Positions 16,504 through 63,968 of a DNA stretch of 64,000 nucleotides are shown here, in pieces (positions within the stretch are counted from its first letter, which is position 1; every line of letters starts with the position of its first letter). Below the pieces are notes generated by a model. That model saw only the letters and a list, made by a program, of their open reading frames with translations, had not been told where the DNA came from and made no database searches. The stretch is taken from the sequence record PQ310662.1, one strand, 5' to 3'. This DNA is from Escherichia phage Mimir124. The position numbers and the translations under genes were made by a program.

Positions 16504-19071
16504 ATGTTAGTTGCAGATACCAATCAATCAGCCACTTCAGCGACACTGGGTGGCAAAGAAACAATTGCCTTTGGCATCTCTGATGACCCGGCATTCTTCC
16601 ATGTATTAAGTACTTCCCTGTATAACAATCCTACTCTGGCAGTAGTCCGTGAGACTATCTGTAACAGTTGGGATGCTCATATTGAAGCAGGTAAGACTGA
16701 TACTCCTATTCGTATCACTATTGATACAGACAACTTTATTACCTTCCGAGACTTCGGTAGCGGTATTCCAGATGAACTCATTGGTTCCATTTATGGTGTC
16801 TATGGTGCATCTACTAAGAAGTCCAACAGTAGTGTTACTGGTGGCTTCGGTCTGGGATGTAAATCCCCATTCGCTTATACAGATAGCTTCCAGGTTACTT
16901 CATGGAACCAAGGAAAGATGTCTGTATATAACGTAGCTAAGGCTGCGATTGAGAATGATGGTAAACCGGGTATTGTTCCTATTGTTACCAATATTCCTAC
17001 TGAGGAATCTGGTCTGGAAGTTAAATTCCAGTTAGGCAAGCATGATGTAAATACCTTCGTGCATTACATCACATCAATTGTGTTTAACGGTGAGATTAAA
17101 GCTGAGCTTAGTATTCCTAAACTCGTTAAAACAGAAGAGGGTAACAGTATTCAGCAGGGTGATTACACTCTACTGAATACACTGGGTATGTCATTTGAAC
17201 CTGGTTCGTATGATATGTCTGATAGATGGTATCAAGGCTATATGGGTAGTAGTAACATATACGTTCGCTACGGTAACGTAATGTACCCAATAGTATCTAG
17301 CCCGGCTAGTGAAGAGGCTGTAGGGCTTATCCTCAACTTCATGAATATTATTGGTGCTTTTAATTTAGTAGTTCAGGCTGCACCAGACACCTTAGCTATT
17401 GCTCCTAGTCGAGAAACACTGTCTAACCAGAAGTTAACTGATGATGGTATTACTACTCTATGCGTAGATTTAGTAGACCGTATGGAGAAAGAGATTAAGG
17501 CTAAGATTCCTGAAGCTATTAAACAGATTGAGGAATATGCCTCTGAATCCTCTACCCGTTTCTGGGAATATCCATCATTCCTACTTGCCGTTACAGACAA
17601 AACTGTTCAACGCTATATGTCCTCTAGTTTGTGGGCTAAGCAACGTAAGCATCATATCAAGCACTGGCGTAACTTATCCAATAAGGCATTATTAGCTCGT
17701 CCTGAATATGCAGGTCTTAAGAAACTGTATGGTAAGGCTATGCGTGCTCTTAAGGATACTCGTGAAGAAAGTACATACTCCCCATTCCATGAATTAGTAT
17801 ATCGTCATCTGCACTTACCCCAGCTTGCTGCTTTAAAAGCTATAGGTATTAAGTGGTCTGGCTACATAGTGAACCAGGGTAACAGTGTTGACTTGGAGAA
17901 AGGTAAACTCGCTGACTACTTTAGAATATTCCATAACTCCCACCAGAGTATTGGCATATTCACTACCAAGAACGTTGTAGTTACTCGACGTTTGTCTGAT
18001 TGTGCTGACTCTTTCTCATACTTCCCTGAATACAACAGAGGTGACTTGGAGCGTACAGCTTTTGTTCACGTCGTTGGACCTAAGAAGGGTGCGGCAGAGG
18101 AAGCTGTAGCTAAGTTCACTGCTATGGGTTATCGGGTAATTGACCTTACTCAATACAATGAGTGGGACAAACCAACTAACTTCCGTAGGGAACAGGCTAA
18201 GATAGCTGCTGAGAAACGAGCTAAGACAATAGCTACCAATAAAACCAAAGCAGGAGGTAAAACTAATGCTCTGATTTCATTGAATGCAGTTAATGGTACT
18301 ACTATTGTACGGGATAAAAATGGTGATTGGTTATCTAAGCCTTATATTCAGAATGAGTTTGCTGACCCAAGCCGCCATGATAAATCTGGTTTCGTTGAAG
18401 TAGAGAAGCCAAAGTACTATGTACTGGCTAATCAGGTTGGTTCAGGTAGCCCAGTAACTGCCAGTATTGGAACCATGTGGAAATGGTATGAGTTATCTGA
18501 TGAGATGAAAGCAGAGACTGTTGTCTGTCGTAATCAAATCGAAGCTAACAAGGCTAAACGACGAGGTGCTATCCACATTGATGATGTTCGCTTTAGTGAA
18601 TTGATGTCAGTTATTACCAGTAAAGGCTTCAAGAAATATGTTACTGAACACCGCATCGGTATTCTGGAATACGTAGGGCTGGATGACAGAGAGTATTGGG
18701 AAATCCTCGACATACTGGGTCTAACATTCAAACCATTACAGAATCTGATTTTTAAACCAGAATATGAATGGGCATATGACTTTCTACGGAATCGCCCACT
18801 CAACAACAAAGAAAAACTTGTTGAAATGGGTTGTATTAAGTCAGTGAATGATTTAAAGCCATATGCAAGGATGGTTAACCCACGTAACCATAAGTACTAT
18901 GAGATACTTAGTAGTTACAAAGAGTTATTCAGCTATAGCTGGAATAAAAATGACATCCTACAGACGCTGGACTTAGGTAGTTTGGTCAAACACCTTAAGA
19001 AGAATCCAGAGGATATTCCTGGGTTTAAGTCCCTCTACCGTAATCGTCTAAATAAACTGAAAGGTAACTAA
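16504..19071 (+). CDS. rIIA-like protein with N-terminal GHKL/histidine-kinase-like ATPase domain
   Basis: ETICNSWDAH...ITFRDFGSGIP...GGFGLGCKSPF match GHKL N, G1 and G2 boxes; 855 aa. Confidence 0.55.
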   Translation: MLVADTNQSATSATLGGKETIAFGISDDPAFFHVLSTSLYNNPTLAVVRETICNSWDAHIEAGKTDTPIRITIDTDNFITFRDFGSGIPDELIGSIYGVYGASTKKSNSSVTGGFGLGCKSPFAYTDSFQVTSWNQGKMSVYNVAKAAIENDGKPGIVPIVTNIPTEESGLEVKFQLGKHDVNTFVHYITSIVFNGEIKAELSIPKLVKTEEGNSIQQGDYTLLNTLGMSFEPGSYDMSDRWYQGYMGSSNIYVRYGNVMYPIVSSPASEEAVGLILNFMNIIGAFNLVVQAAPDTLAIAPSRETLSNQKLTDDGITTLCVDLVDRMEKEIKAKIPEAIKQIEEYASESSTRFWEYPSFLLAVTDKTVQRYMSSSLWAKQRKHHIKHWRNLSNKALLARPEYAGLKKLYGKAMRALKDTREESTYSPFHELVYRHLHLPQLAALKAIGIKWSGYIVNQGNSVDLEKGKLADYFRIFHNSHQSIGIFTTKNVVVTRRLSDCADSFSYFPEYNRGDLERTAFVHVVGPKKGAAEEAVAKFTAMGYRVIDLTQYNEWDKPTNFRREQAKIAAEKRAKTIATNKTKAGGKTNALISLNAVNGTTIVRDKNGDWLSKPYIQNEFADPSRHDKSGFVEVEKPKYYVLANQVGSGSPVTASIGTMWKWYELSDEMKAETVVCRNQIEANKAKRRGAIHIDDVRFSELMSVITSKGFKKYVTEHRIGILEYVGLDDREYWEILDILGLTFKPLQNLIFKPEYEWAYDFLRNRPLNNKEKLVEMGCIKSVNDLKPYARMVNPRNHKYYEILSSYKELFSYSWNKNDILQTLDLGSLVKHLKKNPEDIPGFKSLYRNRLNKLKGN

Positions 19072-19075
19072 TCTG

Positions 19076-21124
19076 ATGAAAATCGAACTGATTTCTATCA
19101 TCGCACTGGCAGTTGACAGTCGAAACCTCACACTGTGGAAGCCAGATGGCTCCACGGTTGTATATCCACAAAGCGACCCACGGGTTGCTCGTATTGTATC
19201 TGAAGCACAGACTAAAGGTCTTGGCACTACCCAGGACCAAATAGAAGTAAACATTGCACCAGAAGTAGAACTTCGTACTGAATATCTGGAAGCAGAGAAG
19301 AACACCAACGGATTCGTCCGTTTCTTCAAGGTAGCTAAGGCTAAGCTAAAAGAGTTCTTCGAGGATGGTACAAGTGTTCAACCAGCCCGTATCATTTCAG
19401 ATATTAAACTGGGTAATCCTACAAAGACTCTGGTGTCTAAAGCTATGGATACCTTCCTGGCTGGCCAGGCAAATGAACCAGAAGTAACGGTGGCAGATGG
19501 TTGTTACGACAAACGTGACAATCTGATGTGGGTTACTGGTTGGGATAAGGACCATAACCATCTTGCACTGGTTCGTTTTATTAATGACGTACTGGGTTGG
19601 GGTTATGACCATACTAATCGCATCCTTGCACGGGAATGGCCTATTGGAATCCGTGCAGTATCCGATGATGAAATGGGTGAGTTTGCTAAACAAGCCAAGC
19701 ACATCAAAGGAGTACACATTGTATTCACCAGCCGTAAACATACCCCACCACCTTACATTGAAGTAGCTAAAACTACGAACCAGGATAAGCTGGCTGCTGC
19801 TTCTGAGAAGTTAGCTGCATTGGGTGCTATTAGTACCGATGACGCTAACTTCCACACTGAAGTGAAAGAAGATGAAGTGGTTGTTGCTGTTACCAACAAT
19901 GGGGTTATCCCTGGAGTTGAGAACCTGCAACGTCACCTACGCCAATCTGCCAAACTGAAAGACTATAAGGGCTTTACTAAGTTCCTTGAGCGTCTGGCTC
20001 CGGTTATTAAAGACCGTTTGCACTCAGTGGAAGACTTGATGAAGTTCATGGAAACTGCTGAACTGCCTATCGCTGATGATGGCTCTATCCTGTTCCTGAA
20101 ACGCCTTAAGTTCCGGGGTACAGAAGACGGTAAACGTGTATTCGTTGACTGTCACTCAGGTAACATCCGTCAGTGGGTAGGCTGTAAAGTACAGGTACGA
20201 GAAGACCTGGTAGACCCTGACCGTCGTCAGGACTGCTCTAATGGCCTACACGTAGCATCCATGAGCTATATCCGTAGCTTCGGTGGTAACGTAACTATCC
20301 TTGGTAAAGTAGCACCGGAAGATGTATTTGCTGTTCCTCAGTACAGCACCAATAAGATGCGTGTATCTGCATATCATATTATTGCTGAACTGCCGGAAGA
20401 AGAACGTAATAACGTTAACAATGGTATCTACCTGTCTAAGACAGAAGTAGGTAAAAAGTTGCTTAATGATGCCATCGTTGGGAACCATAGTTCACCTACC
20501 ACTCTTATTATGGTTGGTGGACATCGTGGTACTAACCTCAAATACACTAATCTTACATCTGGTTCTGTAGAACAATTCCGTACAGTTGCTAGTAAAGAAG
20601 CACTGAACATGGAAGAGTCACTGAATGAAGCCGTAGCTGCTGAACCAGTGAAGGCTACTGACCTTAAACCTGTTATTAAGAAGGCTCCTACTGTGAAAGA
20701 ACAAATCCAGGAACTGGTCAAAGAGTTCCTTAATGCAACAACCCCGGAAGATAAGTTAGCTGCTGCTGACCTTCTGGTAGAACTGCGTTCCAAAGCCAGA
20801 AAGCCTTGGGGTGCATTCGACGTAGGTAGTGATGTAGTAGACGCTATTGCTACTATCCGTAGTACTCGTATTCCTGCACCTAAAGCTGTTAAGCAGGATA
20901 AGACAGTTAAACCTACACGTTCTGCTGCTGCCACTAAAGTAGCTCCGTCTGGTAAACACGCTGATAATCTGCGTAGCATCCTGAACGATACGACGTACTC
21001 CGACTATCAGAAAGGCCATGCTCTGCAAGACTATAAGCGTCATGCTAAGAAGTCATTCACTGCAATGGGTCTGACTGAAGAAGAAGCTAAGTTAGCTACC
21101 AAGCTGGTTAAGGCTGCTAAGTAA
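19076..21124 (+). CDS. rIIB-like protein (assigned by position after rIIA-like)
   Basis: 682-aa ORF immediately after the rIIA-like gene; no diagnostic motif recognised. Confidence 0.3.
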   Translation: MKIELISIIALAVDSRNLTLWKPDGSTVVYPQSDPRVARIVSEAQTKGLGTTQDQIEVNIAPEVELRTEYLEAEKNTNGFVRFFKVAKAKLKEFFEDGTSVQPARIISDIKLGNPTKTLVSKAMDTFLAGQANEPEVTVADGCYDKRDNLMWVTGWDKDHNHLALVRFINDVLGWGYDHTNRILAREWPIGIRAVSDDEMGEFAKQAKHIKGVHIVFTSRKHTPPPYIEVAKTTNQDKLAAASEKLAALGAISTDDANFHTEVKEDEVVVAVTNNGVIPGVENLQRHLRQSAKLKDYKGFTKFLERLAPVIKDRLHSVEDLMKFMETAELPIADDGSILFLKRLKFRGTEDGKRVFVDCHSGNIRQWVGCKVQVREDLVDPDRRQDCSNGLHVASMSYIRSFGGNVTILGKVAPEDVFAVPQYSTNKMRVSAYHIIAELPEEERNNVNNGIYLSKTEVGKKLLNDAIVGNHSSPTTLIMVGGHRGTNLKYTNLTSGSVEQFRTVASKEALNMEESLNEAVAAEPVKATDLKPVIKKAPTVKEQIQELVKEFLNATTPEDKLAAADLLVELRSKARKPWGAFDVGSDVVDAIATIRSTRIPAPKAVKQDKTVKPTRSAAATKVAPSGKHADNLRSILNDTTYSDYQKGHALQDYKRHAKKSFTAMGLTEEEAKLATKLVKAAK

Positions 21125-53838: not shown

Positions 53839-54480
53839 TTAATCGTTCAGGCTACCAGCAGCAATCTGTGCTTGAGCCAGTTGAGCCAATTCTGCTTCAG
53901 TCAACGGAGGCAATACTTCAATGGAGAACTCACGTGCTTCAGTTGCACGGATATCCGGTAAGCCATTCTTACCTTTACGAGTAGTAATGTTGATGAACTT
54001 ACGTTCTTTAAGGAACTCGTAGATACAGTACGGGATATGATAACCATTGTCGGTTACTTCACCGAACGGAACAAACTTACGTACAGTACCCATATATTCA
54101 TTAGCTACGGTGATAATCTCACCTGGCAGGTCTTTCTTCTTAGGGTCAAGGTTCTGGATACGTACACGAATCAGCCGAGTCTGTTCTGCACGAATCTTCT
54201 GACCCAGGGTCATCTTCTTAACACCTGCTTCTTGTTTAGCACCCAGTGGGTTAACAGCATCTTCTTCTACTTCTGGTTCATCGCTTGCTTGTGCAGCTTC
54301 AATCTTCTCACGAAGTTTCTCAACGGAGATGTTGTTAGAGAACTTAATATTCATCAACGTTGCACGTTGCTTAAGAACTTCAAGTTCACTAGGCATTGCA
54401 ATATCGTTAACGGTATCTTCGTTGCCCTGTACGTTCAGTTCTACGTCAGTGGTCGGTTTATCGTTAATGCTCATGTTCAT
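53839..54480 (-). CDS. hypothetical late protein (213 aa)
   Basis: ORF with GGAAAT RBS; directly downstream of capsid gene. Confidence 0.45.
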   Translation of the reverse strand: MNMSINDKPTTDVELNVQGNEDTVNDIAMPSELEVLKQRATLMNIKFSNNISVEKLREKIEAAQASDEPEVEEDAVNPLGAKQEAGVKKMTLGQKIRAEQTRLIRVRIQNLDPKKKDLPGEIITVANEYMGTVRKFVPFGEVTDNGYHIPYCIYEFLKERKFINITTRKGKNGLPDIRATEAREFSIEVLPPLTEAELAQLAQAQIAAGSLND

Positions 54481-54510
54481 ATTTCCTGTGGTTCATTTAG
54501 TTTTATTAAG

Positions 54511-54530
54511 AGGGGGACTAATGTCCCCCT
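54511..54530 (-). promoter_or_regulatory. strong hairpin immediately downstream of the major capsid gene (attenuator/stability element)
   Basis: agggggac-taat-gtccccct (8-bp GC-rich stem); on the minus-strand mRNA it is not followed by a U-run. Confidence 0.4.
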
Positions 54531-54547
54531 TGTTTTATTTCGGACTA

Positions 54548-55750
54548 TTACAGAGGAGCAACAGTCTTAATCAGAGCCAGACGTTCTGGGCGTTTAACCA
54601 GAATACCGTAGTACCACTTGATAGAACTGAAACCAGTCTCACCATACGGGTCATTACGGTCAGCAGTTTCTTTACCTGGCATCTTAGTCATGATGGTGAA
54701 CTTAACAGACTTACCATCAGTCTGGAAGCCAATGGTAGAGAAGGAGTCATCACCAACTACCAGCATCGGGAATACGTCGTAGTGTTCTTCACCACTAACC
54801 ATAGAAGAACGATAACCCGGGTTAGTAGTAACCTGAGCACCAGCACCTGCCCAATGCAGCATCTCAGGAACCTGGATAATACGGAACTTGTCGATACAAC
54901 CAATCTCACCATTCATCAGAGTACCAGCATCAGCATAGTGCTGAACCTCGATGAATGCTTTGTTACCGAACAGGTCTTTCATCGCTTTCAGTTCTGGAAC
55001 CAGCTCAGAACCTACGTACATTACACGAGTACCACCAAGTACTTTGGTATCAGTAAGTTTAGAACCAGTGATGATAGTAGTCTGGGTCGGAGTACGGTTC
55101 TCAGTAAGAATCTGGTCAAGACGCATCAGGTTCTTATAAGAAACTACAGACGGGGTAGCACCTTCACCAGTGATGGTAGCATCAGAGGTAGCAGCACCTG
55201 CATACAGTACAGTACCAGCAGCAGCCAACAGGTCTTTCTGGAGAACAGCTTCAGTCAACTGTACAGCACCGTTCATCAGTTCACGAGACAGGTGTTCTTT
55301 CAGTTGGTCATCAGAATCAAAGTCCAGGGACTCTTGAGTAAATTCATAGAAGAAACCGAACTTATGAATGGAACCTTCACGAGACAGACGAGTAAAGCCT
55401 ACACGGTTAACACGACCACCATTCTCTGTCAGCAGAGGCAGTTTAGAGGTGATGTTACCAACGTCTCTGGAAGAGCCATACAGGTTACCATTAACGATGG
55501 TAGCTCCATTAGCATCAATACCCTGGTCGTTGATGTTCTTATCATCAAGCAATGGAACGTACTCATACACCTTAACAGTCTTACCGTAGTTCTTCGGCAT
55601 GTTAATGGTGTTAGCCAGTGGCATGAAATACTGGTCTTTACGGGACTGAATAATAGCTTTCTTCAGCCAGTAATAGGTATTCATCTGGTCGGAACCAGCA
55701 CCATCAATGCTAGATTTCTGACCGTCAATTGGGGCGTTATAGTTTAACAT
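54548..55750 (-). CDS. major capsid protein (N4 gp56-like)
   Basis: 400 aa (N4 MCP is about 401 aa); position between scaffold-like acidic protein and virion genes; hairpin downstream. Confidence 0.65.
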
Positions 55751-55766
55751 ATCATCTTATTCCTGT

Positions 55767-56987
55767 TTAAAGACTACCCGGTACTGGGAGTTTAGCGAAA
55801 TCTTCATCACTCATAGCGAGTGGGTTTACAATAGGTGTTGCTTTACGTGTAGCAGCCCGATTGAGGGAAGCTGCTTTAGCTTGCTCACTGTTAGCCAGAG
55901 TCTGCTTAGGTTGTGCTACACGCACTACCGGCTGAACCACTGGCTTAACTGCTTGTACCGGTTCTGGCTTAGCTACTCGGTTAAATGCCCCTTGCTGTGC
56001 AAGGAGGTTACCGACGTGGTTATAAGCCTGAATGAACGGAGTACCTACCGGAATCTGGCCTAACATCTGAAGACGGTTCACTTCGTTTGCAATGGTGTCA
56101 TAAATACCATTCTCACGTTGTTCGTGAATAGTCTGGAGTAGGCCACGATTCTGGTAAAGAGCATCTTTACTGGCAGCATCCCATGTCGAGCCGATAACAC
56201 CTAATGTAGCTTGTCCTTCTTGAGTAGACTTTAAGTCGTCAATTTCGGTTGCAAAATCTGCTTCGGTGTCGGTAACACGGTGATTGCCACCCTGGTAATT
56301 AATTTCCTCATCTGGGTTAAAGTCCAGAGGATCTGTACCAGAGTCTTTGAGCAACTTCTTAATGGCTTCAGGATTCTTTTTATCCAGGTCAATCAGGAAA
56401 GAAAGTTTATCCTCATCCATTAAACCGTTGTTCTGTAACATCAGCATTACCTTACGGTAAGGCTTTAGTTCTTGCATCTTACGAGTATAGTTAGCACCCA
56501 TCTGCATCAGGCTAATGGCCTCCTCCGGTGAACGGGGAGTAATCACTTTGCCGTTAGCTTTAAAAGGAGCCATCAACTTTTCGTAACTTTCCTTATAGTT
56601 GAAGTCAGCAGGCAGACCTTCAGACTGTTTGCCTTCTTCTTCCTGTTCCTGGCCTGGTTCAGCAGTAGAAGGTTCAGCTTTAGTAATCGGCTCGCCGTTA
56701 CTATCAACTTCTGTGTCAACAACTTTATCATCAACTTTATCAGAAGTTAAAGGATTTGCTGAATCTTCTTCATCTAGTTCGACTTCAGGGGAGGTTTCTT
56801 CGGTTGGTAGGTCTTCAACAGCAGGGGTGTCAACTTCTTCTTCAGGAGTCTGTACGCCGTTGGTTTCTGGGTTGTTCTGAGTGGAAGTATCTTCCTCAGC
56901 AATAATTGCTGGGGCTTCCATATTCAGAATCTCATCATCCGACATTGCGAGAATGTCGGAAGCTGTGGTTGCAGCTTCCGTAGTCAT
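55767..56987 (-). CDS. putative scaffolding protein
   Basis: Strongly acidic, low-complexity N-terminal third (EEDTSTQNNPETNGVQTPEEEVDTPAVEDLPTEETSPE); located between portal and capsid genes. Confidence 0.4.
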   Translation of the reverse strand: MTTEAATTASDILAMSDDEILNMEAPAIIAEEDTSTQNNPETNGVQTPEEEVDTPAVEDLPTEETSPEVELDEEDSANPLTSDKVDDKVVDTEVDSNGEPITKAEPSTAEPGQEQEEEGKQSEGLPADFNYKESYEKLMAPFKANGKVITPRSPEEAISLMQMGANYTRKMQELKPYRKVMLMLQNNGLMDEDKLSFLIDLDKKNPEAIKKLLKDSGTDPLDFNPDEEINYQGGNHRVTDTEADFATEIDDLKSTQEGQATLGVIGSTWDAASKDALYQNRGLLQTIHEQRENGIYDTIANEVNRLQMLGQIPVGTPFIQAYNHVGNLLAQQGAFNRVAKPEPVQAVKPVVQPVVRVAQPKQTLANSEQAKAASLNRAATRKATPIVNPLAMSDEDFAKLPVPGSL

Positions 56988-57364: not shown

Positions 57365-59635
57365 TTACAGGTTCATGCCAAGAGCCGATGCTGGGTCTTG
57401 GCTAGGGTCATAGAATTGGGAACTAAGTGAATAAGCCGGGTCTTGCTGAGCAGCTATATCACGTTCTGGTATAGAGTTCCCATCAGTCAAAGTATTATAT
57501 CCAACAGCAGCAGATATGTTGGGGGTAGTTTCCCCTTCTTTAATAGGTGTTGTCAATGCCTTAGTTATCTGAAGGTTCTGGTTTCCTTGAGACTGTGCTT
57601 TTTGTTTTTCCATATCACGAGCATGTTTAGTACCAGATTCCTGTTCCAGATAATCCAAGTCTTTAAGGTCACCAGCAGAAGCAGCCTCTTTAGCCTTAGC
57701 CATATTGAGTGCAATCTTACTCTGCAACTCTTCATTCTCAAGCTGTGCTTTCTGAATTGCCAATTGCTTAAGCTGTTCTTCCATAGGGTCTGGTTGTGGT
57801 TGCCAAGTACGTAATTCATGAGCCAGGTCAGGCATACGTTTAAGTTCTGCAATCTTAGCTACGAGAGATAACGTAATAGTCTGGTCAACCGTATTACCCA
57901 ATGTTTGAACCATGAAGCTCAAATCCTGAGACTTCTGGTTATCAATTTCAGCAGTGTTAATATCAACCTCAATGTCGAAGTTACCTTTAAGGTCTTCACG
58001 GTTAATCTCTACATACTGCTCGTTAGTAATACGTACTACTTCTTTCTCAGATAAGAACACAGCATTCATTGCACAAATCTTAGTACCAATGTCTGCCATA
58101 CCCTTAGCTAATCGACGAAGGATTGCCATCTCTCGTTTAGATGCTGCATCAAGTGCACCACGAATACCAGCAGCCACGTCCCCATAAGCTGAGCCAGTTA
58201 CACCACCAGAGAATGCTTTAACACCAGTTAGGGATTCTGCTTCCTGGTTTTGCATCTGGGTCATTACTATTGCCGACTGAGGTAACTCTGGGAACTTATG
58301 TTCCATAATGGCCTGACTAGGATTACCCTGCATTGGGTTATATTCATAGTCTTGCCCATCGTCATATCGACGTCGGTTCAGTGTATCCAGCATCCCTTTA
58401 GGGTAGCCACGTTGACCATTTGCACTTCGACCTAACAGGTCAATCATCCCACGCATAGTTGCACCAAGAATTGCTTGGTTATCCCCTAATAGTTCAGCAT
58501 CAGCTTCACCAAAGAGTTCGCGTTTACGTGGCATGTAAGGAACAACTACTAAAGGTAACTTACCATCCGGGAATGGGTTCTTCTCCATACGAATAAGAGT
58601 AGAACCAATCCAGGTAGCAACAATTGGTTCCAGAGAACCATCATCGTTGATGTCGTAAAATCCCCAGTACTCATAAGCAACAACTTTCTTACGAAGTGCA
58701 TCCTTAAACTGGAAGTCACTAGGAGTTTTACTTTCATGGTCTGGGTCAGTCATAGGGCTGGAGCTTTCCCAATCAATCTTATCCAGGTTGTGATAACGGT
58801 CTTTGTTCTTCATGAGGTCTGCTTTGCATGTCTCGAATGAAATGACTGCATAAAGAGCCTTATCCAAATCACCATTACAGCTTGGGTCAATAACTACGTT
58901 ATTAGGGTTAAGCATTTCAACGGTAGGTCTGTTAACCAGTGCTTTCTCTACCTCTACCTCAGTAACTCCAGTCTGGATTGCATAAGTAGCTTCACCAGTT
59001 TCATTAAAGTAGTTAACAGCTTCCTTAATATCTTCAGACATTGTTTCATCATACTCACGAGGATTCTCAGCCTGAAGTTGTAAAGCCTGTTGAAGAACAT
59101 CTGCCTGTTCCTGTTTCTCAATGGGATACAGCTGGAAGACTGGGGTTTCTGTTTTAATCTTAACAGTCTTACGTTCCCAACCGATACGAGCAATACCAGT
59201 ACCATCGTCTACGATACTATGCACGTAATCATCCACCAGTTTTACTTTATTAAGCTGGGTACGGAATTGGTAGTTAAGAACTAACTCATTCTGACGTGCA
59301 GCTAACTCATCTTCAAAAGTAACAGGTGTTAGCTTAAAGAGTTTACTGGATGAGAGGAATGGTTCAGATAATGGTGCATAACGCCACTCCGCCTGACGGC
59401 GAACCAGTCTAGGCTGGACTTGTGAACGTCCCTTAATCTTTGGGGGTTTAGCTTTACCCTTGACTTCCATTAGGTCATTCCACTCACGAATCTGAGACAT
59501 GATTGCATCATGAGCAGGTTTAGCAGATTCCAAATCACCCTTCAGTAATTGGATACTTGGTTCCTTCTTCCAGTCCGTTAACTTCTCTGATTGAGTCGGG
59601 TCTGGTAAAGGCTTAAAAGAGTCTTGGTGTTCCAT
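57365..59635 (-). CDS. portal protein (N4 gp59-like)
   Basis: 756 aa; position upstream of scaffold and capsid genes; size matches N4 portal as I recall it. Confidence 0.6.
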
Positions 59636-59643
59636 AGTTATTC

Positions 59644-60144
59644 CTATTCAAAAAGTTTACGGTCAGCCTGAATTTGTTTACCCAACTCAATTAGTTGGTT
59701 GTCACGGAGTCTAACAGTTGCCCGGAGTTCTTCAACCAAACGTCTGCCTTCTTCAAGACTATTGTCGAGTCTGGCTGCATGGCTTGCAAGACTTCTGCAC
59801 TCAAAGGCTCCGGCTTCGGCTTGACGTTTATATACCGATGCTCGTCTTTCAGACTGTTGCATCCGGCTGTCATAATCACTGCTAACGCGAGCAAGCTCGC
59901 TTGCGTAATTACTCTCAGCCGTCTGCAACCGGGAAGTGAGTAACCCGACTTCATAACTATGGTTTCTTTGGAGAGCATTGTATTTGTCCTGTAATTTTTG
60001 TGTTGCCTTAAGGTCTTCGACCTTTTGGTCATCCCACTTCTTTTGAACAGTAGACTGTCCATTGGAATTACCCCAAAAGTAAATGGTGGCCCCAAGGACC
60101 ACCACCAGAAGATAAGGCCAACCTTTAGAGATTAGCATCTTCAT
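59644..60144 (-). CDS. i-spanin (Rz-like)
   Basis: N-terminal TM ([16 protein letters not shown]) followed by charged coiled-coil region; immediately downstream of endolysin; start set to internal M (MKMLISKG). Confidence 0.5.
59691..59954 (-). CDS. candidate embedded o-spanin (Rz1-like lipoprotein)
   Basis: Alternate frame inside Rz; [32 protein letters not shown] has charged n-region, hydrophobic core and a lipobox-like TAGC; Pro-containing mature part. Confidence 0.35.
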   Translation of the reverse strand: MKSGYSLPGCRRLRVITQASLLALAVIMTAGCNSLKDEHRYINVKPKPEPLSAEVLQAMQPDSTIVLKKADVWLKNSGQLLDSVTTN

Positions 60145-60760
60145 TACATGCCTCCAGTGGCACATTGCCTATTCGGTTAGCTACCCAACCATACGTAAAG
60201 TCTGGCATGTTTAATGAGGTGTAGTGGTTCAGTTGTTTGGCATCTAGTAACTTAATTATTACCTGACATGCTGCAACTTTGCCTCTTTTTTTCTGTAATG
60301 CTTTATATGCATTAACAGTACCTGCACCGACTTTACCATCAACCTGTATTTTAGGGTAGTCTTTGCCATCACGGGACATTTCATTAAGAGATAGCTGCAA
60401 CCACTTAGCCGGACGGGATACACCAGTGTTAACACCAGCATCAACCAGTTTGTGCGTTATAGCAGGAGATATATCAGCGAAGGCTACGAAGTTAGGCTTA
60501 AGTACGTAGTCATCAATGTATATCTCAGCAGCCATCTCTTTAGATAAACCTTTCATAGAACCATCCCAACCATACTCAGTAGCCAGAACTTCTTTATGGG
60601 TCTTAGCTACTGATTGGGTAATACCATGATTAGTTTCCCCACCTGGGTCGCGAGGATTGTTTACGTACCCTCCTTCCATATAGAACACTGCCCCCAGAAT
60701 AGCAGCGACAACTCCTCCCACTGCACCCCCTTTTGCAGCGAGTTTCTGTTTAGCTTTCAT
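60125..60760 (-). CDS. SAR endolysin, GH108 N-acetylmuramidase with peptidoglycan-binding domain
   Basis: MEGGYVNNPRDPGGETNHGITQ matches the GH108 EGGY..DP.D.GG.T..GIT motif; preceded by Gly/Ala-rich weakly hydrophobic N-terminus (GGAVGGVVAAILGAVFY). Confidence 0.75.
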   Translation of the reverse strand: MKAKQKLAAKGGAVGGVVAAILGAVFYMEGGYVNNPRDPGGETNHGITQSVAKTHKEVLATEYGWDGSMKGLSKEMAAEIYIDDYVLKPNFVAFADISPAITHKLVDAGVNTGVSRPAKWLQLSLNEMSRDGKDYPKIQVDGKVGAGTVNAYKALQKKRGKVAACQVIIKLLDAKQLNHYTSLNMPDFTYGWVANRIGNVPLEACNEDANL

Positions 60761-61010
60761 GAGATTTTTCCTTCGGTTGGAATCGTATTAATCTGCCTAC
60801 AATGTTTAGGGCAAACAGTGCGATTGTAATACTGGAGCCATGTGGAATATCTTCCAGAATGTGACGAGGTAGTCCTGTTAGCATTGGTTGGATAATATCT
60901 ACAGCAGAAAATAGTATTAACCCAAACGTACTAATCTGAACAGATGCCCACTTCCAGGACTTCTTCCAGTTAGGTACTAACTCAATCTTTCTTTTTAGCC
61001 TGCGAACCAT
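60750..61010 (-). CDS. holin-like two-TM membrane protein (possible pinholin)
   Basis: Two hydrophobic helices (ISTFGLILFSAVDIIQPML; ITIALFALNIVGRLI); overlaps endolysin start; start set to internal MVRRLKRK. Confidence 0.4.
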   Translation of the reverse strand: MVRRLKRKIELVPNWKKSWKWASVQISTFGLILFSAVDIIQPMLTGLPRHILEDIPHGSSITIALFALNIVGRLIRFQPKEKSHES

Positions 61011-61360
61011 GCGAATATCTCCCGTCTTGCAGCAGCCAATACACCAATAATTGCACCTGCTCCTGCCCATACCCACTTACCGAAGATACCAGCACCAACC
61101 ACTTTGTGCTTAATGGTAATAAACTCTTCAATGGTGGGTTCCGACTTAGCAAGGCTATCCTCTACGTTTTTAAGTCTGCCTTCCATTTGCTGAACAGACT
61201 CCTTCAAACCAGATAAGGTTTGTTCCAGTTTATCCTTAGAACGTTCCTCCTTTTCTTGGTTCTTAAATAATGTTTCCAGTCTTTCCTCCAATCGGGCAAG
61301 AAGAACCGAAGTCGATTCATCGCTCATGAGAAAGTCCTTATTGTTTGTAGTGACACCCAT
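60995..61360 (-). CDS. coiled-coil protein with C-terminal TM segment (lysis-associated?)
   Basis: N-terminal heptad-like charged region, C-terminal VVGAGIFGKWVWAGAGAIIGVLAAA. Confidence 0.35.
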   Translation of the reverse strand: MGVTTNNKDFLMSDESTSVLLARLEERLETLFKNQEKEERSKDKLEQTLSGLKESVQQMEGRLKNVEDSLAKSEPTIEEFITIKHKVVGAGIFGKWVWAGAGAIIGVLAAARREIFAWFAG

Positions 61361-61428
61361 ACGGGACGTATCAGAAGAGTCTGACTGAAAGATAATACTG
61401 ATTTAGGTTTGTAGAGGGAAGTGAGAAA

Positions 61429-61448
61429 AGCCTCCCGCATGGGAGGCT
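61429..61448 (-). terminator. rho-independent terminator (minus strand)
   Basis: agcctccc-gcat-gggaggct; on the minus strand followed by tttt. Confidence 0.6.
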
Positions 61449-61452
61449 TATT

Positions 61453-61713
61453 TTAAACAGACTGTTTTAGTGCAGCTTCTGCTTCTGCAATGGGATTACC
61501 AGAACCAGAATAGGTAAAGGGGAATCGGTTAGCACTACCCTGCTTACCGTCTATGGTAACAAGGTACTCTGCTACACCATCATTACCAAATAAGCTGACA
61601 ATACCCTTAACATCAAAAGTTGCCGTAACTTGTTCCATGACAGAGTCAGAGATTACATTGTACTCTGGGTAAGAACTTTTTTTACTAGTATTAATTTGCT
61701 TAGTAAAAGACAT
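61453..61713 (-). CDS. hypothetical late protein (86 aa)
   Basis: ORF between tailspike gene and terminator. Confidence 0.45.
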   Translation of the reverse strand: MSFTKQINTSKKSSYPEYNVISDSVMEQVTATFDVKGIVSLFGNDGVAEYLVTIDGKQGSANRFPFTYSGSGNPIAEAEAALKQSV

Positions 61714-61721
61714 AAATAACC

Positions 61722-63968
61722 TTAGCTGGATGCCAGCACTTTATTTGCTATAAGAGAAGCAATCAACGCATTAACGGCCACAGAAGCTGGGTCAGTACCT
61801 GTACTTGGAGTTACTGCTGCTCCCTTAGTGACAGGACCTACTACTATGACACCAGACGGATTATCTGATGTTGGTTTGTTAGAGGACAGCCTCAAGTAAC
61901 CATCAGAACCTACCCAGCAATAATACCCATTAAGGATGATATAGCCATCACGATAATCCCCAACGTAAGCAGTTCCTCCCTTCTGCCTTGACCCAATCCA
62001 ACCCGAACCAGCAGACATAGTTTTACGGAGTTGGTTACCCTGCATACAAGGGTTGGTCACATTAGAAGATAGGACCACAGACTGAGATACAGTAGGTCTA
62101 TCCATACAGCCTGCCCCAACTATTGGGTAGTCTTCCTGAGACAGCTGCATAGTAATGGCATCCGTAGATGTAGACAACCCATTAATATTATAGAGATTAT
62201 TGCTACCAATAGTCTGAGCTGCACCTGTAACGGGGTTAGTGGTCCCAGCACCTGTACGGAAAGCGATGTTTATACTACTACCAGTACCTACACCTGTGCA
62301 GGTAATATTGTACGTAGAATCAGAACCACCCAATTTCAGGCCAGACTTACATACGGCAGTTACGATACAACCAACCAAATCTCTCAGCTCTATTGCATAT
62401 TTAGCTATACTAATTCCAGAGAACACAGTAGTAGAGCAACCTTGTAGAAAAGTCTGTCCACCAATTAACCCATCTACAACAGAATCACGCAATCCGTATA
62501 ACCAGATACTACGAAGCACCGTAGACCGAGATGGTTCCACCCGAATTCCCTGTATAACCATATTTCTATTGGGTACATAGTAAGGAGTAAAGATGGCATC
62601 TACGTAGAAACCGTAGTTACCCTGAGAACCAGTGGCATTCGCATCTTTGGTTGAGATTTTACCAATCACCAGACCGGGGGAACTCATTACCTTGAATACA
62701 GCATTATCGGTAGTAGAGCTAGAACCAGATAAAGTCACACTATCTATAATTGAGTGACCGAATACATAAGTAGTATTCATACTGGATGGTTCATACGCAC
62801 CTAACACATTATTGTTAGTAAAATGAAAGTTATATAAGAAGCTGTTAACAGATCGCCCAATAGTAACACCATCTACCTTAACCCCAGCAGATTGTCTAAT
62901 CTCCAATCGTTTTATATAACCAGCCCCTACGATTGAGACATTTTCAATGTAACCAACTTTAGCAATCCAAGGGTTAACATGAGTAAATTCCAACCGCTTA
63001 TCCAGAACAATACTGGTAGACGTAATGGACTTAACTCGAACCACTTCGAAGTAGGCAGACTTGGCCTCTACCCCATCAGTACCATCAGTGTTCTCAATAC
63101 GCAGTAAATCATTTACTGCGAATAGGGCTGTATAATCCCCCGGTATAGTATAACCATCTGATGACAGAGTACCTGTGTACTTGACGGCAGACTTGAGAAT
63201 GGAGATTACAGGTTTCTGGTAAGGGTAACGAAGACCGGAACTCAAGGTAAGAGATGAGCTGGACGCAGCAGCTACAGTAGCAATATCAGAGCCAATTTCA
63301 TTACCCTGAGAGGCACTACCTCCGTCAGTATCGTTAAGACGTACTACAACAGTGTCTCCTACGTTAAAATCCAGAGCATTACCCTGAGAGGCACTACCTC
63401 CGTCAGTATCGTTAAGACGTACTACAACAGTGTCTCCTACGTTAAATCCAGAGAAGTCACCAGATAATACTGTGGTTCCTGCTGGGATATCTGACCATGC
63501 AGCGTCACTGTTTACTGTCCTTGTAGTGGAGAAGTACTCGCCTTTAACAATTACAGAGAACTGTAAGTTAGCATTCTGATTCAGCTGGATACTAACGCTT
63601 TTGTCAATGTTAAGTGTGTTACCTATGTAATTACCAGCTGGGAAAACCAGAGGCCACTTTTTAGATATTGCAGCATTGGCAGCTAATAGTATTGCAGCAG
63701 TATCGTCAGTAACACCATCCCCTTTAGCCCCATACATTTGAGGAGTAACGTAGTTAAGACCACCGATAAGGGATGTTCCTGTCAGAGAAGACAGAGCATC
63801 TGCTAACCAACCCCCAGGTTGAGCCTTGGTTAGTGTAAATTGTCCAACATCTGTAGTAAGAATCAGGGAATCAGACGATACTGACCATGCTACAGGAGTA
63901 CCTGTGGCGTTACCCGTAAACCAACAGGTTTCAGTAATTGGGTCATACAAAACTGTATACCCATTCAC
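61722..63968 (-). CDS. tailspike/tail fibre with pectate-lyase-like beta-helix (putative depolymerase)
   Basis: QMYGAKGDGVTDDTAAI matches the pectate lyase superfamily N-terminal motif common in phage tailspikes; 748 aa; internal 26-aa tandem repeat. Confidence 0.6.
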   Translation of the reverse strand: MNGYTVLYDPITETCWFTGNATGTPVAWSVSSDSLILTTDVGQFTLTKAQPGGWLADALSSLTGTSLIGGLNYVTPQMYGAKGDGVTDDTAAILLAANAAISKKWPLVFPAGNYIGNTLNIDKSVSIQLNQNANLQFSVIVKGEYFSTTRTVNSDAAWSDIPAGTTVLSGDFSGFNVGDTVVVRLNDTDGGSASQGNALDFNVGDTVVVRLNDTDGGSASQGNEIGSDIATVAAASSSSLTLSSGLRYPYQKPVISILKSAVKYTGTLSSDGYTIPGDYTALFAVNDLLRIENTDGTDGVEAKSAYFEVVRVKSITSTSIVLDKRLEFTHVNPWIAKVGYIENVSIVGAGYIKRLEIRQSAGVKVDGVTIGRSVNSFLYNFHFTNNNVLGAYEPSSMNTTYVFGHSIIDSVTLSGSSSTTDNAVFKVMSSPGLVIGKISTKDANATGSQGNYGFYVDAIFTPYYVPNRNMVIQGIRVEPSRSTVLRSIWLYGLRDSVVDGLIGGQTFLQGCSTTVFSGISIAKYAIELRDLVGCIVTAVCKSGLKLGGSDSTYNITCTGVGTGSSINIAFRTGAGTTNPVTGAAQTIGSNNLYNINGLSTSTDAITMQLSQEDYPIVGAGCMDRPTVSQSVVLSSNVTNPCMQGNQLRKTMSAGSGWIGSRQKGGTAYVGDYRDGYIILNGYYCWVGSDGYLRLSSNKPTSDNPSGVIVVGPVTKGAAVTPSTGTDPASVAVNALIASLIANKVLASS
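63301..63446. repeat. 78-bp tandem duplication (2 units, 68 bp identical) inside the tailspike gene
   Basis: ttaccctgagaggcactacctccgtcagtatcgttaagacgtactacaacagtgtctcctacgttaaa occurs at 63301 and 63379; encodes NVGDTVVVRLNDTDGGSASQGN twice. Confidence 0.85.

Follow-up and report, generated by a model that had tools for sequence, protein, structure and literature searches.

The stretch of Escherichia phage Mimir124 DNA analysed here (sequence record PQ310662.1; 64,000 nucleotides (nt), hereafter the window) carries a late lysis cassette of five tightly overlapping genes at 59644-61327, all on the minus strand (Table 1). Named after their counterparts in phage N4, they encode a gp63-like protein with a single C-terminal transmembrane domain (TMD), a gp62-like protein with two TMDs, a gp61-like endolysin with an N-terminus of the signal-anchor-release (SAR) type, a gp60-like inner-membrane spanin (i-spanin) and, embedded out of frame in the gp60-like gene, a gp60a-like outer-membrane spanin (o-spanin). 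The cassette very probably serves a G7C-like coliphage as a system of pinholin, SAR endolysin and two-component spanin. Judged by their N4 counterparts, the gp63-like protein is probably the pinholin, and the gp62-like protein is probably a dispensable accessory regulator, holin-like but not the main trigger. By DNA identity the phage is a Gamaleyavirus (G7C-like, Schitoviridae): over 59300-61176 the window shares 97.0% identity with Escherichia phage 24-32N, 95.8% with IME11 and 93-95% with many G7C-like phages.

Table 1. Features of the lysis cassette and of the adjoining region in the window (aa, amino acids)
Feature	Coordinates	Strand	Remarks
gp63-like gene	61327..60995	minus	110 aa; single C-terminal TMD
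gp62-like gene	61010..60750	minus	86 aa; two TMDs
gp61-like endolysin gene	60760..60125	minus	211 aa; GH108 + PG_binding_3
Predicted SAR segment of gp61-like endolysin	60677..60730	minus	residues 11-28, GGAVGGVVAAILGAVFYM
gp60-like i-spanin gene	60144..59644	minus	166 aa
gp60a-like o-spanin gene	59954..59691	minus	87 aa; +1 frame, inside gp60-like gene
Lipobox T-A-G-C (ACA GCC GGA TGC) of gp60a-like o-spanin	59859..59870	minus	read from sequence
Tailspike gene	63968..61722	minus	first in transcription order
Open reading frame (ORF) of 86 aa, function unassigned	61713..61453	minus	phrog_7836; between tailspike and lysis genes
Terminator-like hairpin	61449..61421	minus	AAGCCUCCC-AUGC-GGGAGGCUU then UUUUCUC; interrupted U-tract
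Portal gene	59635..57365	minus	downstream of lysis genes

The cassette as such is not new. Near-identical genomes carry it in annotated form, a spanin census lists it (Kongari et al., 2018), and the functions of its N4 counterpart have been dissected (Awuah et al., bioRxiv 10.1101/2025.11.12.688109, from the Ramsey laboratory; Stojkovic and Rothman-Denes, 2007, as cited there). With NC_008720 as the N4 reference record, sequence comparison makes the cassette orthologous, gene for gene, to N4 gp63-gp62-gp61-gp60/gp60a. Protein identity to N4 is 67% for gp63 (E 2e-55), 58% for gp62, 70% for gp61 and 57% for gp60, and the gp60a frame reaches 60% overall and 80% in its mature part; to 24-32N the figures are 100% for gp63, 99.5% for gp61, 98.8% for gp60 and 98.9% for gp60a. 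In relatives the cassette genes are annotated as holin, endolysin or N-acetylmuramidase, and Rz-like spanin. N4 gp60-63 suffice for rapid lysis (10.1101/2025.11.12.688109). The initial annotation had described a lysis cassette of four proteins within 59644-61360, consisting of a GH108 endolysin with a SAR-type N-terminus, a two-TMD protein taken as its pinholin, a downstream i-spanin-like ORF and, tentatively, an Rz1 embedded in the latter. All of these elements were recovered on the minus strand, orthologous to the N4 cassette, and most of their assignments stand, including those of the endolysin and the i-spanin. The genes number five rather than four, however, and the 110-aa gp63-like protein, which lies in the same range, had not been given the pinholin role. 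Gene structures, domains and orthology were computed here, as were the conservation of the SAR composition, the lipobox Cys and the N4 rapid-lysis sites, and the selection acting on the embedded frame.

Domain matches support the endolysin assignment. Pfam PF05838 (Glyco_hydro_108) matches residues 24-113 (E 7.7e-20; 71.7 bits, cut-off 21.2) and PF09374 (PG_binding_3) residues 117-196 (29.2 bits, cut-off 24.6), the protein belongs to the phrog_315 endolysin family, and it aligns with the solved GH108 proteins 6v3z (E 7e-27), 6v40 (2e-20), 7dnp and 2ikb in the PDB. The N-terminus reads MKAKQKLAAK, followed by GGAVGGVVAAILGAVFYM and then by EGGYVNNPRDPGGETNHGI, residues 29-47, which correspond to the EGGY...DPGG.T..GI motif of the catalytic region. 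Across 15 N4-like loci, from phages of Escherichia, Klebsiella, Pseudomonas, Achromobacter, Erwinia, Stenotrophomonas, Burkholderia and Delftia, the EGGY motif is kept in most orthologues, as it is in the PDB homologues, with the variants EGGW (inbricus) and EQGY (RG-2014).

In composition and layout, the endolysin N-terminus is of the SAR type. Its segment G11-M28 comprises 18 uncharged residues, nine of them Gly or Ala, with K2, K4, K6 and K10 before it and E29 of EGGY directly after it. It aligns in register with V8-V25 of N4 gp61 (VGGVGGVIAAIIAAVFAV), whose rapid-lysis site G12 is G15 in the window. The design recurs in 15/15 N4-like loci, where basic residues precede about 15-20 uncharged, usually Gly/Ala-rich residues that lead into EGGY or a close variant, while the sequence itself drifts. 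N4 gp61 is a SAR endolysin that complements endolysin defects together with a canonical holin or a pinholin, and with spanins and no holin it causes slow lysis; its rapid-lysis mutations introduce an acidic residue into the SAR domain, e.g., G12E (10.1101/2025.11.12.688109). For the defining SAR behaviour, in which an uncleaved N-terminus and Sec-dependent export go together with slow holin-independent release and fast release on depolarisation, N4 gp61 is the documented case. By analogy with this protein, the window endolysin would be exported, tethered and released. Alignment of both the Pfam GH108 profile and the soluble homologues of solved structure begins at residues 16-24, so that the hydrophobic segment is, in its C-terminal half, homologous to the fold's first helix; the tethered enzyme would thus not be fully foldable, and release would activate it, as in other SAR endolysins. 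Two properties alone underlie the SAR call: how rich the stretch is in Gly/Ala and how long it stays uncharged. Hessa-type and Kyte-Doolittle sums over 18-residue windows did not separate the segment from ordinary TMDs, and a single-sequence AlphaFold2 model, meant to show if the GH108 fold takes up the SAR helix, was unusable (mean predicted local distance difference test score, pLDDT, 33.7).

The gp63-like protein matches phrog_5211, a family of unknown function (E 5e-50), with the alignment beginning at Met12 of the longer ORF. It falls into three parts: a variable cytoplasmic tail predicted to be helical or coiled-coil (residues 1-60), a segment at residues 61-76 (KSEPTIEEFITIKHKV) that resembles the "Receiver" of N4 gp63 and is identical to that of G7C in 16/16 positions and to that of N4 in 14/16, and a Gly/Ala-rich C-terminal TMD (V76-A100) with a G91xxxG95xxxA99 motif. 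The TMD region agrees with N4 gp63 in 30/34 residues, Lys84 within it is conserved in 11/13 relatives, and the N4 rapid-lysis sites T65 and T71 are both kept. In GenBank, homologues of this type are often labelled "tail length tape-measure protein", "tail needle protein" or "hypothetical"; the tape-measure and tail names probably arose because of the coiled-coil N-terminus. A true tape-measure homologue lies elsewhere in the window (55767..56987, phrog_2120).

The gp62-like protein matches Pfam DUF7940 (3e-14) and phrog_1356 "holin" (7e-30). Both of its termini are basic, which fits an N-in/C-in arrangement of the two predicted TMDs; Asp38 lies within TMD1 (about A22-L44), which is not rich in Gly/Ala, and TMD2 has only about 15 uncharged residues. 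Its ORF stays open for 22 codons further upstream (61011-61076), to a GTG/ATG right after a stop codon, and 8 of 11 N4-like loci keep this extension open. For N4, the preprint speaks of a 109-aa form of gp62 with a dual-start motif (10.1101/2025.11.12.688109). In the window the upstream TAA-GTG-GGT-ATG is forced, because the conserved GKWVW codons of gp63 overlap it in another frame, and no Shine-Dalgarno motif is visible before the upstream start; the extension lies over sequence that codes for the conserved gp63 TMD. A long form of the gp62-like protein made from a dual start may exist.

Downstream of the endolysin gene, the i-spanin matches the Rz-like spanins of phrog_6197 (E 7e-78), with the alignment starting at Met8 of the longer ORF. 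An N-terminal TMD (about residues 8-25, with W9 and W24 near its ends) precedes a long periplasmic domain that is predicted to be helical and has C116 as its only Cys, a residue missing in 3 of 15 relatives. The orthologue in G7C was classified as the embedded type, with a periplasmic domain 93.6% helical (Kongari et al., 2018). The o-spanin gene begins 190 nt into the i-spanin gene and ends 47 nt before its end; of its product, the first 31 residues would serve as the signal peptide and the other 56 would form the mature lipoprotein. Basic residues (K2, R11, R12, R14) mark the n-region, V15-G31 form the hydrophobic core, and the lipobox T-A-G-C spans residues 29-32, with Cys32 as the predicted lipidation site; the Asn at +2 means that there is no signal for retention in the inner membrane. 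The sequence passes the PROSITE-type lipoprotein pattern, and its -1 and -2 residues fit the o-spanin consensus [LVI][ASTVI][GAS]C, from which deviant lipoboxes have been documented and one validated (Kongari et al., 2018).

Comparative evidence raises the embedded ORF from the tentative Rz1 of the initial annotation to a genuine Rz1-type o-spanin. Its frame is open, its Cys invariant and its -1 residue Gly or Ala in 15/15 N4-like loci; the signal peptide diverges freely, and motifs such as INVKPKxEPL are conserved. By tblastn the frame, 100% identical to that of IME11, was found in 158 phage records, and it is annotated in Bas96, at the same coordinates, and in Pokken. Third positions of gp60 codons are second positions of gp60a, so synonymous conservation was scored at gp60 codons with an unchanged amino acid. 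Conserved third bases amounted to 364/469 (78%) in the overlap and 318/370 (86%) in the part encoding the mature o-spanin, against 119/271 (44%) outside it, and the suppression went in the same direction in 10/10 divergent comparisons (pooled Fisher p = 4e-20, a nominal value because the comparisons are not independent). In their supplementary tables, Kongari et al. (2018) enter G7C, PhAPEC5 and PhAPEC7 under "embedded" and assign each an o-spanin of 87 aa, 56 aa when mature; the i-spanin gene of PhAPEC5 and PhAPEC7 measures 501 nt there, with offsets of 190 and 47 nt, the layout of the window; in the main text of that paper, neither a description of the N4 family nor cysteine-less o-spanins were found. 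N4 gp60 and gp60a complement lambda RzRz1 (10.1101/2025.11.12.688109).

Several points weigh against the view of the cassette as a complete pinholin, SAR endolysin and spanin system. Functional data come only from the N4 proteins, which are 57-70% identical to those of the window, and from a preprint. In that work the N4 cassette without gp63 still lysed cells on plasmids, with a delay of only 20 min, and on plasmids either gp62 or gp63 could speed lysis (10.1101/2025.11.12.688109); together with the late holin activity of gp62, the lysis without gp63 means that the division of labour is not absolute. G7C reportedly lacks the lysis inhibition of N4 (10.1101/2025.11.12.688109), and regulation may therefore differ from that in N4. 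For the endolysin, cleavage of the N-terminus by signal peptidase may still occur as far as computation goes. As for the o-spanin, no clear Shine-Dalgarno motif precedes its ATG at 59954, the -3 residue of the lipobox is Thr instead of Leu, Val or Ile, an imperfection already pointed out in the initial annotation, and the mature protein has no Cys beyond the lipidated one, so that covalent linkage could run only through Cys116 of the i-spanin.

Which protein acts as the trigger is the question on which the initial annotation has to be revised. It had cast the two-TMD protein as the pinholin, and in such a scheme the 110-aa protein would be an antiholin, a regulator or unrelated to lysis. The topology of a class II holin and the match to phrog_1356 speak for this assignment, as do the "holin" label of gp62-type genes in many relatives and the one record in which the gp63 homologue is a "putative antiholin"; N4 gp62 also has a triggerable lethal activity and brings about late release of both SAR and soluble endolysins. 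The window proteins are, however, clear orthologues of N4 gp62 and gp63, whose roles in N4 are the reverse. N4 gp62 is dispensable, its deletion leaving lysis intact; it shows only late triggerable holin activity, fails to complement S21 or S105 defects within 2 h and was named "lysis regulator", and none of more than 60 N4 rapid-lysis mutants maps to it. N4 gp63, 110 aa long with a single C-terminal TMD, is the pinholin: it forms small lethal holes, is triggered irreversibly by an uncoupler, complements the S21 pinholin defect and not that of lambda S105, kills irreversibly, is conditionally essential and carries most of the rapid-lysis mutations, in the "Receiver" segment beside its TMD (T65I, T71A) (10.1101/2025.11.12.688109). 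In at least one N4-like phage, Delftia phage RG-2014, moreover, the gp63 gene directly adjoins the endolysin gene and gp62 is absent. Since the N4 orthologue of the two-TMD protein is not the pinholin, we assign that role, provisionally, to the gp63-like protein and an accessory one to the gp62-like protein, and regard the converse arrangement as unlikely.

Two further alternatives concern the endolysin and the embedded frame. The endolysin N-terminus might be a conventional cleaved Sec signal peptide, with the enzyme secreted and otherwise regulated, or a stable anchor, instead of a releasable SAR segment. It is indeed laid out like a signal peptide, with a basic n-region, a hydrophobic stretch and the small residues G23 and A24 near the end of that stretch. 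Yet the uncharged run ends at M28, immediately before E29 of the catalytic motif, with no polar c-region for a signal peptidase site, and since the GH108 profile and the solved homologues start within the segment, cleavage would cut into the fold itself. In N4, gp61 associates with the membrane and functions alongside a pinholin, the early lysis caused by an acidic substitution in its segment is SAR behaviour, and the Gly/Ala-rich composition persists across hosts despite sequence drift. We therefore consider a cleaved peptide or stable anchor highly improbable. Still less credence, close to none, can be given to the idea that the embedded +1 ORF is a chance open frame and that another factor disrupts the outer membrane. 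The weak or absent Shine-Dalgarno motif and the Thr in the lipobox would suit it, as would the lack of any PHROG or Pfam match for the 87-aa product. An open frame and a Cys that stay invariant from Escherichia to Delftia, together with the frozen synonymous sites of gp60, effectively refute it, and the mature o-spanin is as conserved as the overlapping i-spanin frame, in several comparisons more so; the complementation by the N4 pair and the entry in the spanin census point the same way.

The system made up of the pinholin, the SAR endolysin and the spanins would operate as follows, where export, tethering, triggering, release and the identity of the pinholin are drawn from the N4 experiments and from general knowledge of SAR endolysins and pinholins. 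The host Sec system would export the endolysin, and its Gly/Ala-rich N-terminal segment, which runs right up to the catalytic EGGY motif and shares residues with the first GH108 helix, would tether the inactive enzyme in the inner membrane. Meanwhile the gp63-like protein would accumulate in the same membrane through its C-terminal helix and form small depolarising holes at a programmed time. Depolarisation would free the SAR segment, allowing the muramidase to refold in the periplasm and degrade the cell wall, after which a complex of the i-spanin in the inner membrane and the lipoprotein o-spanin in the outer membrane would disrupt the outer membrane. The gp62-like protein would act alongside as an accessory, dispensable modulator of the holin type.

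The five genes appear to form a single unit. Successive non-embedded genes overlap by 16, 11 and 20 nt, and the Shine-Dalgarno motifs AAGGA, GGGAG, GAAGGA and GGAGG lie 6-8 nt upstream of the four non-embedded starts (AAGGA 7 nt before 61327, GGGAG 8 nt before 61010, GGAGG 6 nt before 60144). The longer ORFs opened by ATG 61360, ATG 60165 and GTG 61076 probably do not mark the real starts; the inner ones are preferred because the PHROG profiles begin at the inner Met, relatives are annotated from there and the Shine-Dalgarno motifs are found there. A terminator-like hairpin sits just past the stop codon of the 86-aa ORF, at the upstream border of the lysis cluster; its computed folding energy is -16.7 kcal/mol (z = -4.07), and 0/200 shuffled sequences folded as stably. 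A simple terminator scan did not list it, because its U-tract is interrupted. Overlaps, ribosome-binding motifs and hairpin together indicate one translationally coupled unit, and the position of the hairpin between the 86-aa ORF and the lysis genes suggests that transcription of the cassette may depend on read-through or on a late promoter of its own. A sigma-70 promoter scan, whose scope excludes N4-type late promoters, gave no hit on the minus strand upstream of the cassette, and its total hits were fewer than expected from shuffled sequence.

The gp63-like gene also appears to be a recombination mosaic. DNA similarity to most Gamaleyaviruses ends at 61176, inside this gene, and the breakpoint region was taken as 61176 to about 61455. 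The N-terminal 60 residues are identical to those of 24-32N in 60/60 positions and to those of Klebsiella phage phi1_146050 in 58/60, against only 26-27/60 for G7C and Bas96, whereas gp62 shows the opposite pattern, being only 53% identical in phi1_146050. The similarity break and the mismatched affinities of gp63 and gp62 point to a recombination junction within the pinholin gene, at the edge of the hypervariable tailspike module. The N-terminal tail would thus have been swapped between N4-like phages of E. coli and Klebsiella along with the boundary of that module, while the Receiver and TMD stayed nearly invariant; the N4 preprint, too, remarks that the gp63 N-terminal tail is variable (10.1101/2025.11.12.688109). 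That the exchanged alleles, or a dual start giving a holin/antiholin pair in the gp62-like gene, tune lysis timing is a speculative and rather doubtful suggestion. If it is true that the tail sets the timing or receives a phage-specific inhibitory signal, the gp63 alleles would be natural lysis-timing or lysis-inhibition variants within the G7C-like group, for which an absence of lysis inhibition has been reported.

Around the cassette, every gene of the 57.3-64 kb stretch lies on the minus strand. The tailspike gene contains a 78-nt tandem duplication at 63299-63453 (2.0 copies, 98% match), which doubles, in frame, a 26-aa segment that begins FNVGDTVVVRLNDTDGGSASQGN. Further away, the ORFs at 54329-55747 (plus strand, 472 aa) and 54548-55750 (minus strand, 400 aa) overlap almost wholly; presumably the major capsid-region gene is here paired with a shadow ORF. 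The window also has an ORF of 3449 aa, the size of an N4-type virion RNA polymerase (vRNAP), and, on the plus strand, an rIIA-like gene (16504-19071, 855 aa, phrog_2979, E 2e-299) followed by an rIIB-like gene (19076-21124, 682 aa, phrog_2886). In the record OY979416.1 of Klebsiella phage vB_Kpl_K57alpha1.2, the region matching the lysis cassette carries "RIIA/RIIB lysis inhibitor" features, which look like a mis-registered annotation and not like biology.

Beyond annotation the cassette has little significance of its own, as near-identical copies exist in dozens of sequenced G7C-like phages. For annotation it matters in two respects. The gene usually labelled "holin" in this group, of the gp62 type, probably encodes an accessory regulator, and the actual trigger of lysis is probably the gp63-type gene, often filed as "hypothetical" or "tape-measure"; the embedded o-spanin, omitted from several GenBank records, is real and merits annotation. 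Anyone who sets out to adjust the lysis timing or burst size of N4-like therapeutic phages would profit from the corrected roles.

Among known systems, N4 is the closest with an experimental record. Gene order, the position beside the portal gene and the overlapping starts and stops are all as in the window, and both share the SAR design and an o-spanin of 56 mature residues, at 57-70% protein identity. Differences lie in the gp63 N-terminal 60 residues, of which only 29/60 are identical, in the SAR segment, where the window has an additional basic K10 and a leader longer by 3 residues, in the lipobox (IVGC in N4, TAGC in the window) and in the upstream neighbours, which are gp64/gp65 in N4 and the tailspike module in the window. 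The Gamaleyavirus relatives 24-32N, IME11, G7C, Bas96, PhAPEC5 and PhAPEC7 carry annotated cassettes of 93-97% DNA identity, although G7C and Bas96 have a different allele of the N-terminal half of gp63.

Resemblance to the paradigms of phage 21 (S21-68, R21, Rz/Rz1) and P1 Lyz is one of design: to our knowledge, there is no detectable sequence similarity between them and the window cassette. As in those systems, the window is predicted to encode a Sec-exported, tethered endolysin with a Gly/Ala-rich, releasable N-terminal helix, and, as in phage 21, a small depolarising holin and an o-spanin gene embedded in the i-spanin gene. The endolysins of phage 21 and P1 have a T4-lysozyme-like fold, whereas that of the window is a GH108 muramidase; the S21 pinholin has two TMDs, the first of SAR type, in contrast to the single C-terminal TMD and long cytoplasmic N-terminal domain of the window candidate. 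The spanins of the window, finally, fall in a sequence family (phrog_6197) other than that of lambda Rz/Rz1; their mature o-spanin lacks a Cys for intermolecular disulfides, and their i-spanin has one periplasmic Cys instead of two. With lambda they nevertheless share the embedded +1 architecture, a type II i-spanin whose periplasmic domain is helical, and an o-spanin that is a small Pro-containing lipoprotein.

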